The position numbers were made by a program, and so were the translations under genes. Shown here piece after piece: positions 153-51,170 of a stretch of 64,000 bases of DNA (positions within the stretch are counted from its first letter, which is position 1; each line of letters starts with the position of its first letter). This DNA comes from Candidatus Woesearchaeota archaeon (lineage in GTDB: Archaea > Nanobdellota > Nanobdellia > Woesearchaeales > JAGVYF01): assembly GCA_041650315.1 (NCBI GenBank), contig JBAZLJ010000001.1, positions 280,259 to 344,258 of the forward strand. The letters are read 5' to 3'. The notes under the pieces are model-generated. The model saw nothing but the letters and a program-made list of their open reading frames with translations, made no database searches and was not told the DNA's origin.

Positions 153-394
153 GGGCGTGTCCAGAATGCTTGTTGATACAAGCCAATGTCGTACAAGAAC
201 TGCTTTGCAGTTCTGTGCACAGGAGTACTTAGTACTCCTTGTGCCTCACATCTATTTCTTTAATATAATCTGCAGAATAGATTCTGCTAATTATTTGTAG
301 ATTAAGTATGTTCAGTATAGACATTGGTTCTGTCAGAGCTGAAGCTCTGAGTATGCTCAAAGCCGTAGCTTTGACACATTCTGGACACGTCCCG
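153..394. mobile_element. MITE-like non-autonomous element, copy A (~241 bp). Terminal inverted repeats are GGGCGTGTCCAGAATG (153-168) and CATTCTGGACACGTCCC (377-393); it is flanked by TAAAAA on both sides (147-152 and 395-400). No ORF of its own.
   Basis: Ends are near-perfect reverse complements (16/17). Internal sequence is shared with 50886-51026 and 9339-9397. The six-frame ORFs 29..220(-) and 229..420(-) lie inside or across it and look spurious. Confidence 0.6.
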
Positions 395-6618: not shown

Positions 6619-8899
6619 ACAAATAATCGGCGGATTGATTGGGATTGTTTTTGTCGCAGCTATCTTAGTTATGATTGGATGGATATTCGGAGTAGATACT
6701 CTAAAAAGCATTGTTCCCGGTTTCGTGACAATGAAGTTCTCCACAGCAGTCGCGTTCTTAATAGTGGGATTAATATTGCTGGGAATGTCAAATTTATTAG
6801 ATATATCTTATTTGTATAAAGGCGTATTTTTCTTTTCAACACTATTATTGATATTCATGGGATATATGCTGGTAACTTCTCTATTGGGTTTAACTAGCGG
6901 CATCGAAAATCTAGTTGTGGAAGAAGCAGCAGGTGCATTGAAAACCAGCAAGCCCGGCATGCCTTCGGCAGCGACCATGCTTAATTTCGTTCTTATCGCA
7001 GTCGCTGGACTGATTTCATTATCTTCATATAAACAGAAGGGATTCAGAATAATTTCTGTGATTGTCGGATTATTGGGTGTAAGCAGTGTGCTAGGATATA
7101 TCTCAAACAGCCCTTCATTGTATTTCTATATCGAAGGGATTAGCTCTGCGATGGCGCTTCATACGGCTTTCTTATTCGTGTTCATAGGGATTGCCATATA
7201 TCTTCTTTCAGGACTAGTTTCTGAGAAAAATAATATACAGATAGGCACTGAGATTTTCTTAGGGTTCTTTTCAATTGTAGTATTGATGGTATTCATGATA
7301 GGATTGAGCTCTCAGATCAATACTCAGAGGCTTGAGAATACTCAGATGATAAGGGATGTCGAAGCTCCTTTGGAACTGATGGTTGAACAAGTCAGGGGGT
7401 ATGATGCCATACTCACTAGTGCTGCACACGAATCTTTATTGCATGCACAAAAAGGCGAATTCAATTATGCTAGGCAGCATAAAGTCAAATATGATGAAAC
7501 CAGCGCTAAATTGGATACCCTTCTTAAGTTCAATGCCCCAAAGCTGCTTGCAAAAAGTTTTAGACCGCAGATTGATAAGGATAAAGTAATCGAGATATTG
7601 AATGAACTGGATATTGTGAATATTGAATTGGTTGATTTAGAGATGCGTGCATTTGAAGCTATCGAGAATAAGGACACCGAATCGGCATATTCATTGATTG
7701 TTTCTGAACAATACTCTGAATCTAAGGAAAGGCTTGTTAATTTATACAATGAATGGGTAGCAATTGAAATAAGAACGACTTCTGAGCTTAGAGCTAAGAT
7801 TATAGATGAATCCAATCAGTTAGATTCGCTTAATTTTTATTTTTCAATAATTGTAGTGATATTCGCATTGATATTCTCGATATTCATGACATTGTCTTTA
7901 ACCAGGCCTATCAAAAGATTGGAAAATGAAGTGATTGAGATATCTAAAGGAAAACTGGATCTGCAACTTAGTAAAAGCAATCTTGAAGAAGTGCAAAATT
8001 TATCTGATTCATTGAGCAGGATATTGGCTACCATGAAGCTTGCTGTACTTAGGACCGGACTAACTAAAGCTGAACTTGGTTTTGAGGAAATTGTGAAGGC
8101 GAAGGAAGAAATTGAAAAAAAATATAAGATATTGTTTGACGTTTCTCAGGATGCGATTATGACTATTGCGCCGCCTAAATGGAATTTCACTTCTGGAAAT
8201 CCTGCGACTTTGAAAATGTTTAACATCAATAGTGAGAAGCAGTTGGCATTATTGAATCCAGCAGAATTATCTCCTGAAAGGCAACCTGATGGCCAGCTTT
8301 CATCAGCAAAAGCTAAAAAGATGATTGATATTGCCGTGAAAAAAGGTTCTAATTTCTTTGAATGGACGCATAAGAGATACAAAGGCGAGAATTTCGCAGC
8401 CAATGTTTTGTTGAGCAAAGTCAATGAGGACGGGGAAACCTATCTCCAAGCTACTGTGAGAGATTTATCTAATACAATAATCGGAGAACAGAAATTTAAA
8501 ATACTCATAGAGAGTATGGATGATGCAGTTTATTTGCACGGATTTGAACCTGACGGAAAGCCTACTAATTTCATCGATGTCAATTCTGCGGCATGCAAGA
8601 GGATGGGTTATACTCGCGCAGAATTCCTTAAGATGAGTCCTATGAAATTGGATTCGCCTAAAGGTGCAAAGAACATACCTAAAATAATGAAAATTTTGTT
8701 ATCCACTGGCAAAGCATTGTTTGAAGGAGAGCATATCACTAAGAAAGGTAAGACAATACCTGTCGAGATAAATAGCAGTATCTTGAATATCGCAGGGAAG
8801 AAGTATGTGCTTTCTATCGCGAGAGACATCTCTGGGCGTAAATCCGGCGGATATATCAAGCTGAATACTAACGGAAGAACTGAAAAGTATATGATGTGA
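6605..8899 (+). CDS. Membrane-bound PAS sensor protein: ~7 TM N-terminal domain, HAMP-like linker, two PAS domains, no kinase/MCP/GGDEF output
   Basis: TM region extends to ~aa 235. A second TM lies at ~aa 400, followed by RPIKRLENEVIEISKGKLDLQ (HAMP-like). PAS-like blocks are KYKILFDVSQDAIMTIAP... and KFKILIESMDDAVYLHGFEPDG...KRMGYTRAEFLKM. No H-box or ATPase motifs. Confidence 0.6.
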   Translation: MKQNEQIIGGLIGIVFVAAILVMIGWIFGVDTLKSIVPGFVTMKFSTAVAFLIVGLILLGMSNLLDISYLYKGVFFFSTLLLIFMGYMLVTSLLGLTSGIENLVVEEAAGALKTSKPGMPSAATMLNFVLIAVAGLISLSSYKQKGFRIISVIVGLLGVSSVLGYISNSPSLYFYIEGISSAMALHTAFLFVFIGIAIYLLSGLVSEKNNIQIGTEIFLGFFSIVVLMVFMIGLSSQINTQRLENTQMIRDVEAPLELMVEQVRGYDAILTSAAHESLLHAQKGEFNYARQHKVKYDETSAKLDTLLKFNAPKLLAKSFRPQIDKDKVIEILNELDIVNIELVDLEMRAFEAIENKDTESAYSLIVSEQYSESKERLVNLYNEWVAIEIRTTSELRAKIIDESNQLDSLNFYFSIIVVIFALIFSIFMTLSLTRPIKRLENEVIEISKGKLDLQLSKSNLEEVQNLSDSLSRILATMKLAVLRTGLTKAELGFEEIVKAKEEIEKKYKILFDVSQDAIMTIAPPKWNFTSGNPATLKMFNINSEKQLALLNPAELSPERQPDGQLSSAKAKKMIDIAVKKGSNFFEWTHKRYKGENFAANVLLSKVNEDGETYLQATVRDLSNTIIGEQKFKILIESMDDAVYLHGFEPDGKPTNFIDVNSAACKRMGYTRAEFLKMSPMKLDSPKGAKNIPKIMKILLSTGKALFEGEHITKKGKTIPVEINSSILNIAGKKYVLSIARDISGRKSGGYIKLNTNGRTEKYMM

Positions 8900-8903
8900 T
8901 AAT

Positions 8904-9305
8904 ATGAAGAAGATAATATGGACTACTAAACTCGCAATCGGAATTGATGAAATAGATAATCAGCATAAGCAATTCATCAAGATATTGAACACTTGCTGTA
9001 CTCCCAAAAACATAGATTCACAGAAATTGAAAGAAATCTTTTCCGAATTGATTGAATTCGTAAGGGTTCATTTTTCTACAGAAGAAAAATATTTCGAGAA
9101 ATGGGAATATCCCTATGCTCAAGAGCATATGATTGAGCATGAAAAACTGATAATAAATACGTTGAAATACCAGATGAAGTTTGAGAAGATTGGGGGTAAA
9201 GTTGTCCCTGAACTTTTGAAATTCTTGGAAGATTGGTTTGAGAATCATTTGAAGAAGCATGATTTCAAATACAGGGATTATTTTATAGAGAAAGGTTTCA
9301 TTTAG
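8904..9305 (+). CDS. Hemerythrin-like (HHE cation-binding domain) protein
   Basis: W.....GI..ID.QH...F, then H(x3)E ... HF..EE..F ... H..EH ... H...D. This is the hemerythrin His/Glu/Asp ligand pattern. 133 aa, 4 bp after the PAS gene. Confidence 0.8.
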   Translation: MKKIIWTTKLAIGIDEIDNQHKQFIKILNTCCTPKNIDSQKLKEIFSELIEFVRVHFSTEEKYFEKWEYPYAQEHMIEHEKLIINTLKYQMKFEKIGGKVVPELLKFLEDWFENHLKKHDFKYRDYFIEKGFI

Positions 9306-9338
9306 TTCTGATGGGCTCTGTAGAAAATCTCGTTATCA

Positions 9339-9397
9339 CACAAGAACTGCTATGCAGTTCTGTGCACAGAAGCACTTTGTGCTTCTTGTGCTCGCCA
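9339..9397. repeat. Partial copy of the MITE internal module: two adjacent palindromic hairpins (GAACTGC-WW-GCAGTTC, then GAAGCAC-TTT-GTGCTTC)
   Basis: Matches 193-248 of the element at 153-394. The first palindrome is identical. The second has complementary changes on both arms (GGAGTACT/AGTACTCC becomes GAAGCAC/GTGCTTC). No TIRs here. Confidence 0.55.
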
Positions 9398-9605
9398 CCA
9401 ACAGCAATTTGACCTTGCTAGGTCAATTCTCAAATAATGTTTGAGAAAATGTTGCTATTTCAAAAGTGAGGGTGCTATATCGTCATAGACTTCTATAACG
9501 CACTTGATGTTAGAATTGAGAACATTTTGAGAAGGTTGGTGGACTTTTCTACAAAGCCATTCTGATACAAAGTCTTATAAATAATCTATATTCTCTAGTA
9601 GCTAT

Positions 9606-25904: not shown

Positions 25905-26063
25905 ATGGCAACATTCACAGTGTCAATACCTGAAGATCTAAAGAAACAGATAGATATGCACCCAGAGATAAATTGGGCGGAATACCTTAAGCAAAGATTT
26001 GAATTACGCCTTAATGAGCTTCATAGATTCGAACAGATGAAAGCTTCAGGGGGACTGAAATGA
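25905..26063 (+). CDS. Small ribbon-helix-helix protein (52 aa; not in the supplied ORF track)
   Basis: MATFTVSIPEDLKKQIDMH... has the classic RHH N-terminal strand. The stop overlaps the next start (ATGA). Confidence 0.45.
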   Translation: MATFTVSIPEDLKKQIDMHPEINWAEYLKQRFELRLNELHRFEQMKASGGLK

Positions 26064-26347
26064 CTTCTTTGACATTATCTCTTTCTGAAGAAATGAAAAA
26101 TCAGTTGAAAGCCTATTCTTGGGTAAATTGGAGCGAGATTGCTAGGGAAGAAGCTTTGAAGAAGTTGATATTCGAGAATTATCTCAAAGCGGGAACAATC
26201 ACTGATGAAGAATGGGAATTCTGCGAAAAAATGGATTGGCATCCTACTGATGAACTTCCGTTGAAAAAAGAGTTTGCTGACAAGTTGAAATCCGTCAGAA
26301 AAGAAAAATCTATTAAAGTCAAGTCAGTTTCCAACATATTCAAATGA
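26060..26347 (+). CDS. Putative antitoxin (RHH-like N-terminus) of a RelE/ParE toxin-antitoxin pair
   Basis: MTSLTLSLSEEMKNQLK... Its 3' end overlaps the toxin start (ATGA at 26344). Confidence 0.5.
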   Translation: MTSLTLSLSEEMKNQLKAYSWVNWSEIAREEALKKLIFENYLKAGTITDEEWEFCEKMDWHPTDELPLKKEFADKLKSVRKEKSIKVKSVSNIFK

Positions 26348-26613
26348 ATTATGCATTGGAAATAAAACCTTCTTGCCAGGATCAAATTCGTAAATTGTGC
26401 AGGAAGAATGCTTCTTTTGAACTAATCTTGAAGAAAAAGATTGAAGAGATATTATCTGATCCATATCATTTCAAGCCGTTGAGGTATGGTCTTGCTGGAG
26501 AAAGAAGGGTGCATATCATGAAAAGTTTTGTTCTTAAATATGAAATTGATGAGTCTAGAAAGATAGTCACTTTGCTGTTCTTCGGACATCATGATGATGC
26601 TTATCAGAGATAA
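26344..26613 (+). CDS. RelE/ParE-family type II toxin
   Basis: KPLRYGLAGERRVHIMKSFVLKYEIDESRKIVTLLFFGHHDDAY matches the RelE/ParE consensus (L.G.L.G.R..HI...YRiiY.id....i.iL.igHR.d.Y). Confidence 0.7.
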   Translation: MNYALEIKPSCQDQIRKLCRKNASFELILKKKIEEILSDPYHFKPLRYGLAGERRVHIMKSFVLKYEIDESRKIVTLLFFGHHDDAYQR

Positions 26614-50827: not shown

Positions 50828-50885
50828 AGAGATTTACTTGGTTTTTATAAAGCTAACTTCGGATTTTTCATTAAATTCTCTATCG

Positions 50886-51026
50886 GGCGCGTCCAGAATT
50901 CTCGTTTCACTCGATCAATGCCATCTCACATCTACTTCTTTTCATCTATCTTCAGAATGGATTCTGCTAATTATCTGTACATGTAGTATGTTCAGTATAG
51001 GCATTGGTACCATTCTGGACATACTC
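50886..51026. mobile_element. MITE-like element copy B (shorter and degenerate): TIRs GGGCGCGTCCAGAATT / CATTCTGGACATACTC
   Basis: The interior aligns with 241-340 of copy A (CACATCTACTTCTTT...GATTCTGCTAATTATCTGTA...GTATGTTCAGTATAGGCATTGGT). It lacks the double-hairpin module. Confidence 0.55.
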
Positions 51027-51170
51027 TTCTCTACCCAAACCTTTATAAATAACCTGTTGAAGCTATATGTTTAACAATATAACTCAATTCTTAGGTGAAA
51101 TCACTGCCAAGAGAGCTCTATATTGTGTATTCACATTTATTTTGTATATTATAGGGGAAAATAAGGAGAA

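Follow-up and report, generated by a model that had tools for sequence, protein, structure and literature searches.

A family of small inverted-repeat elements, very probably non-autonomous DNA transposons, in a Woesearchaeota-like archaeon

Prokaryotic small non-autonomous DNA transposons (MITEs), such as QMITE2 of Coxiella and the SM elements of Sulfolobus, are small, non-coding and intergenic, and occur in several copies per genome (review PMC10969869). They have inverted ends, a short target duplication that decays with age and a stable stem-loop fold, and the family described in this study resembles them in all of these respects. In a 2024 census of archaeal genomes, one Woesearchaeal genome was among the densest, with about 105 MITEs per Mb (PMC11602168). 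A terminus of the form GGnnnTG (GG...G7) has been described for IS6/IS26 and IS1 (PMC6807381) and also for IS1595/Merlin elements (PMC8101967). Target duplications measure 8 bp in IS6/IS26 and IS1595 and 8-9 bp in Merlin (PMC6807381, PMC8101967), and the former source itself doubts that archaeal 'IS6' elements belong to the IS6 family.

The window, which is the whole 64,000-nt stretch of DNA analysed here, is part of a 1,007,146-bp contig (ENA assembly ERZ27247363). With a probability of about 0.88, its positions 153-392 represent one copy (copy A) of a MITE family, hereafter family 1, of a Woesearchaeota-like archaeon. An earlier note made from the letters alone had read this locus as a MITE, a view borne out by its terminal inverted repeats (TIRs), by 8-bp duplications checked at empty sites, by multiple copies and by the absence of coding content. 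The element shows every testable feature that defines a MITE, and the parent element alone is missing.

Copy A is 240 nt long and, like the other elements and element parts for which window coordinates are given below, is read on the plus strand. Inverted-repeat search places its left TIR, GGGCGTGTCCAGAATG, at 153-168 and its right TIR, CATTCTGGACACGTCC, at 377-392; the left terminus recurs in copies B, C and D. Over 16 nt the two arms are complementary at 15 positions (94%), with one mismatch and no indel. The ends therefore lie where the earlier note had put them, but its TIR length of 16-17 bp relied on a 17-nt right arm (377-393) that needs an indel, and the true end is 392. Placing the end there removes the indel and exposes a perfect direct repeat, CGTAAAAA, at 145-152 and 393-400 (8/8 positions), read from the sequence and also from the empty-site comparison. 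The target-site duplication (TSD) is thus this 8-bp sequence and not the TAAAAA previously suggested. Taken alone, the inverted repeat is not beyond chance, as shuffling the window with its composition kept produced a 16-nt inverted repeat with at most one mismatch within 400 nt in 25 cases out of 100; its significance comes instead from the recurrence of the family, from the duplications and from the empty sites.

The second, shorter copy previously noted at the far side of the window (copy B, 142 nt, 50885-51026) is a real family member (E=1e-42, family HMM) and has an 84-nt core in common with copy A, at 83% identity. In copy A this conserved family core spans 245-328 and includes the central palindrome GCAGAAT-AG-ATTCTGC. 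The right end of copy B, CATTCTGGACATACTC, has decayed and its S2 side hairpin is broken; this copy is identical in the Logan contig L001. Its flanks, TTCTCTATC at 50876-50884 and TTCTCTACC at 51027-51035, read from the sequence, form a direct repeat that matches at 8 of 9 positions.

The proposal that further copies should be sought beyond the window proved fruitful, as a 91-kb contig from the window's own assembly yielded copies C and D. A scan of 241 million metagenome-contig records, using the left end plus the inner CAATG as the query, matched three loci, only two of which were true. One (L037) is the copy A locus in a strain that shares about 92% identity with the window over 5.7 kb and in which copy A itself is 100% identical; another (L039) is the new copy C, upstream of an rpl1-rpl10-rpl12 operon. 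The remaining locus, L038, is a chance match to the left end and CAATG and was discarded. The copy C locus is also present on contig L046 (91,303 bp), which comes from the same ENA assembly as the window, and an nhmmer search in which copies A, B and C supplied the family HMM identified copy D at L046 13957-14097, 4 kb from copy C (E=3e-32). The nhmmer E-values for copies B, C and D range from 1e-32 to 1e-44, and family copies are present in independent ENA, JGI and Logan assemblies. A core, GTCCAGAAT, is common to both ends of copies A, B and C, with one change in the right end of copy D (CATTCTGGAG). As known at present, the family comprises four copies (A-D), 141-240 nt in length, and one relic, at unrelated loci, and the copy number per genome is probably low. 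A core-pattern scan of species-representative genomes gave 0 matches, a pattern we judge too strict because copy C does not fit it. A BLAST search of plasmids and phages with the element gave nothing at E below 0.03, and two core patterns and the end motif gave chance matches only in viral contigs; a GC-rich viral contig with repeated GTCCAGAAT was rejected as a chance match in coding sequence.

The comparison of empty and filled sites that had been proposed to confirm the TSD was positive at three sites (copies C, A and D). For copy C, the filled allele on L046 reads ...GCT / TCAGAACC / GGGCGTGTCCAGAATG...CATTCTGGACATACCA / TCAGAACC / GCAATC..., the element starting with GGGCGTG and finishing with ATACCA. 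Strains L047 and L048, which are 98.8-99.9% identical to L046, carry the empty allele, ACTATAAAGCT / TCAGAACC / GCAATCTTTATAAATAA, with a single TCAGAACC. The two alleles differ by a clean 149-nt indel, made up of the 141-nt element and the 8-nt duplication. For copy A, we located a related species, L174, through the protein adjoining the element (DUF4013), which is 79% identical and lies in the same gene order. Its copy A site is empty, reading ...ATATAAAAA / CAAATATTTTTAAAT or, in a longer reading of the intergenic region, ...GTACATATATAAAAA / CAAATATTTTTAAATAGC..., with a single TATAAAAA where the window has the duplication, and the window minus 153-400 aligns colinearly with it. Copy D is flanked by TACCATAAC and TACCGCAAC, a decayed duplication (7/9), and its site is empty in the related species L050 and L051, in which only 36-67 nt separate the same two genes; L050 has a single TACCACAAT. 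In such older copies the element boundaries are uncertain by plus or minus 1 nt. Together, the empty sites and duplications indicate that the element is a mobile insertion that duplicates 8 bp of its target.

The assignment of this DNA to an AT-rich archaeal genome agrees with its GC content of 0.39 and with the best protein matches, which are to Woesearchaeota MAGs. Its Lhr helicase is at most 67% identical to proteins of Woesearchaeota and Nanoarchaeota MAGs, which is too distant for site comparison and indicates that the species is not among the representative genomes searched, while placing the host in the DPANN archaea. Its group consists of tiny archaea that have received little study. 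We infer that the window contig and the contig with copies C and D belong to one genome or population, since they come from the same assembly, have close GC contents (0.37 for L046 vs 0.39 for the window) and a tetranucleotide correlation of 0.975, and since no L1 protein from the 1-Mb contig was among the best 120 L1 homologues listed. Activity of the family is spread over time: a core relic persists in the sister species, copy A is common to strains about 92% identical, and copy C is polymorphic at about 99% identity. Copy A hence predates the strain split of about 92% identity. The relic, which has no recognisable ends, lies at L174 2713-2838 between an 85-aa gene and MgtE; at the corresponding site the window has 12 nt only (1307-1318).

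With the extra segments of copy A taken out, the four copies align over 142 columns at a mean column identity of 85%. The basic unit of about 141 nt is an imperfect palindrome along its entire length, with 16-bp ends of the form GGG(C/T)(G/A)TGTCCAGAATG. Its consensus fold (94% of cells paired) consists of a 14-pair terminal stem, an inner stem CAATGYC / GRCATTG and a central hairpin GCAGAAT / ATTCTGC, plus a side hairpin on the left arm only. In copy A this side hairpin, S2, is GCTTGT-TGAT-ACAAGC (169-184), in place of which copies C and D carry GCTCAC-NNNN-GTGAGY, a difference of three compensatory pairs. Overall, both-sided changes affect five pairs, such as those that distinguish GCTTGT/ACAAGC (A) from GCTCAC/GTGAGY (C, D) and a T-A to C-G change in the inner stem. 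The covariation score of the family alignment was reached in 11 of 500 shuffles, and the covariation in the element stems, coming from four sequences only, is suggestive. Compensatory stem changes of this kind are not expected from neutral decay, so something appears to select for pairing.

Such a fold could also belong to a structured non-coding RNA gene, in which the inverted repeats would be the closing helix and the copies paralogues; the earlier note had likewise allowed that its TIRs might be parts of a single conserved structured RNA. The fold of copy A is indeed very stable (-111 kcal/mol, z = -11.9), and there is some covariation in the consensus structure. Against this, a search of Rfam with copies A and B returned nothing relevant for either copy at E up to 10, and the two strands fold equally well, both as single sequences and as an alignment, which speaks for a palindrome at the DNA level and not for a strand-specific RNA. 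Moreover, orthologous sites either carry the exact element or lack it, and the 8-bp duplication differs from site to site, a pattern that an RNA gene family would not give. We therefore regard an RNA gene as very improbable.

The element also lacks coding capacity, as had been stated: its ORFs are at most 63 aa, are unconserved among the copies and match nothing in Pfam. The one of 63 aa, which runs on the minus strand at 229-420, had been annotated as a gene in the source assembly. It forms a singleton cluster, and its frame is interrupted by stop codons in copies B, C and D; most likely, the gene call is spurious and caused by the element. A hidden coding signal was also sought in all six frames, none of which stands out (synonymous fraction 0.08-0.23).

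Copy A is longer than the other copies because of nested hairpin modules, and it consists of the basic unit together with two such modules, of 52 nt (193-244) and 46 nt (331-376). Neither segment is found in copies B, C and D, and each is made up of two perfect hairpins and has short inverted ends; no duplications are visible at the borders of either. The 46-nt module (TGTCAGAGC...GCTTTGACA), unique to copy A by alignment, has no second copy in the sequences searched. The 52-nt module does, at 9340-9391, where it is 88% identical and where the differences in the stems are compensated (AGGAGTACT/AGTACTCCT vs AGAAGCAC/GTGCTTCT). The second copy is held by element E (246 nt, 9313-9558), an inverted-repeat element of a different family with the ends GGGCTCTGTAGAAAAT and ACTTTTCTACAAAGCC. 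Element E follows the hemerythrin stop codon and precedes the TATA box of a U32 peptidase gene, is flanked by GTTCTGAT (9305-9312) and ATTCTGAT (9559-9566), that is (G/A)TTCTGAT, and has nothing in common with family 1 except this module. A search for its empty site gave only the contig that carries it. The module consists of two tandem perfect hairpins, CACARGAA...TTCYTGTG units, which stand at different relative positions in the two elements. Its occurrence in two otherwise unrelated elements and its differing position indicate that it moved or was exchanged independently, and it may be a very small mobile palindrome. Across the window there is no excess of perfect hairpins (11 observed, against 3-14 after shuffling), and the only clusters of them are those of copy A and element E.

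IS200/IS605-type elements and REPs have neither terminal inverted repeats nor target duplications. One could nonetheless suppose that an HUH (IS200/IS605 or REP-associated) transposase, which recognises hairpins and not inverted ends, moved the whole palindrome in single-stranded form, given that hairpins with compensatory changes abound in the element and that the nested modules of copy A have no border duplications. For the modules such a route may apply. For the main element it is highly unlikely, as its ends form 16-bp inverted repeats and its 8-bp duplication is verified at empty sites, and no Y1 transposase was seen in the window, the 9.5 kb on its left side or the 20.6 kb around copies C and D.

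For family 1 as a MITE, the perfect 8-bp duplications and the matching empty sites show that insertion proceeds through an 8-bp staggered cut. Mobilisation would probably take place in trans, by a DDE transposase whose own element carries the same ends. The family-1 terminus, GGGCGTG, fits GGnnnTG, and so does the start of element E when counted from 9314 (GGCTCTG). Judged by this terminus and the 8-bp duplication, the mobiliser may be an IS6/IS26-like, IS1 or IS1595-type enzyme, a link that is a likeness of ends only. As IS6/IS26 moves by cointegrates, a simple insertion of a 141-bp element would be less direct by that path. We found no transposase gene and no longer element with family-1 ends in the window, the 9.5 kb to its left and the 20.6 kb around copies C and D (about 94 kb). 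Likewise, Pfam searches of about 40 window proteins and the gene lists of L036 and L046 contained no transposase, and viral contigs, plasmids and phages contained no autonomous element with family-1 ends. Reasoning that peptides of the element might preserve the N-terminus of a transposase, we also ran a protein search seeded with peptides from both element strands, which returned only the spurious ORF of copy A itself.

In all five elements (A-D and E) the right end is followed, 10-15 nt downstream, by the TATA-like box of the right-hand gene, and copies B and C lie 14 and 13 nt from an identical box, CTTTATAAATAA. This box is host sequence, as it is present in the empty allele. The simplest account of this position is selection in a compact genome, in which the narrow, neutral gap between promoters is almost the sole tolerated insertion site and thus the place where copies survive; the empty gap at the copy D site is only 36-67 nt. 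Targeting of promoters is less likely than such selection. Targeting would mean that the transposase steers insertion to just upstream of archaeal BRE/TATA promoters. As a second novel reading, the 46-52-nt double-hairpin modules may form a class of tiny mobile palindromes of their own, which leave no duplication, prefer MITEs and have stems kept paired by compensatory change. To these readings we give only a slim chance.

A further possibility, which would add to the transposon origin and not replace it, is that the MITE is now used by the host, as an insulator or terminator between divergent genes, as a protein-binding palindrome or as a stable read-through RNA. The compensatory pair changes in the side hairpin and inner stem would agree with such a use, as would the promoter-proximal position of the five elements and the identical CTTTATAAATAA at copies B and C. 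So would the segment 117-509 (393 nt, comprising copy A, its flanks and the start of DUF4013), which is 100% identical to L037 even though the adjoining 5.7 kb differs by about 8%; this identity could reflect either recent recombination or constraint. On the other side, the side hairpin of copy B is broken and its ends are decayed, there is no strand asymmetry of the sort that an RNA role would leave, the covariation comes from four sequences only, and the inter-promoter gap is nearly the only site where an insertion is tolerated. Copy C is missing in near-identical strains and copy A in the sister species, so neither is needed at its site. Taken together, we see host use as a small but real possibility, beside the reading of family 1 as a MITE with no such role.

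Some other features of the two contigs deserve mention. A large gap at 25.8-26.7 kb of the window was considered as another element and set aside, as it holds a small-gene cluster instead: three overlapping genes of 52, 95 and 89 aa (25905-26613) with ATGA overlaps. The last encodes a ParE-family toxin (PF05016, 31 bits), which makes a toxin-antitoxin cassette likely. Between the PolB and methyltransferase genes of L046 (about 7920-8330) lies a non-coding block with GC above its surroundings, which ends in a hairpin and then a T-run. Its conservation in L050 and L051 is partial; it has attracted small spurious ORF calls in L047/L048 and L051, and has no Rfam match at E up to 1; it may be an unrecognised RNA gene. 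Over the window (1-64000), a tRNA scan found no tRNA gene, and no Rfam family reached the gathering threshold.

Family 1 matters in several ways. An insertion that differs between 99%-identical strains shows that a transposon system is at work today in a DPANN archaeon whose genome measures about 1.1 Mb, and the copy C polymorphism is a ready marker for strain tracking in metagenomes. The defined ends GGGYRTGTCCAGAATG and GGCTYTGTAGAAAA offer a handle for finding the parent transposase. In addition, the element is a cause of breaks in assemblies and of false small-gene calls, such as the one of 63 aa.

How, then, does family 1 compare with known systems? It differs from the described prokaryotic MITEs in its low copy number and in its unseen parent element. 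No match to a catalogued MITE sequence was made, in a comparison that had the census sequence lists outside its scope. IS6/IS26 and their MITEs (MITEBth2, MITEHarch3, ISfinder; PMC6807381) share with it the 8-bp duplication and the GGnnnTG ends, whereas the agreement of family 1 with the IS6/IS26 consensus GGTTCTGTTGCAAA extends to only 7 of 14 positions, no transposase is seen, and movement of the IS26 type gives cointegrates and not simple insertions. The ends of element E come closer to this consensus, with GGCTCTGTAGAAAA and GGCTTTGTAGAAAA matching at 11/14 and 10/14 positions (PMC6807381). IS1 and IS1595/Merlin, with GG or GGnnnTG termini and duplications of 8-9 bp, are similar to family 1 in their ends only, and neither a DDE_Tnp_IS1595 nor an IS1 transposase was seen in the vicinity of any copy. 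In its mosaic build, with a core, optional hairpin modules and one module reused elsewhere, copy A recalls the BOX elements of Streptococcus, BIME/REP mosaics and Correia elements. These are bacterial and have other ends, and their duplications are absent (BOX and REP) or TA (Correia). The element is thus of an ordinary kind, in that MITEs are already known in archaea, and this family is new among them; its strain-level polymorphism, nested modules and maintained stem pairing add a modest further interest.
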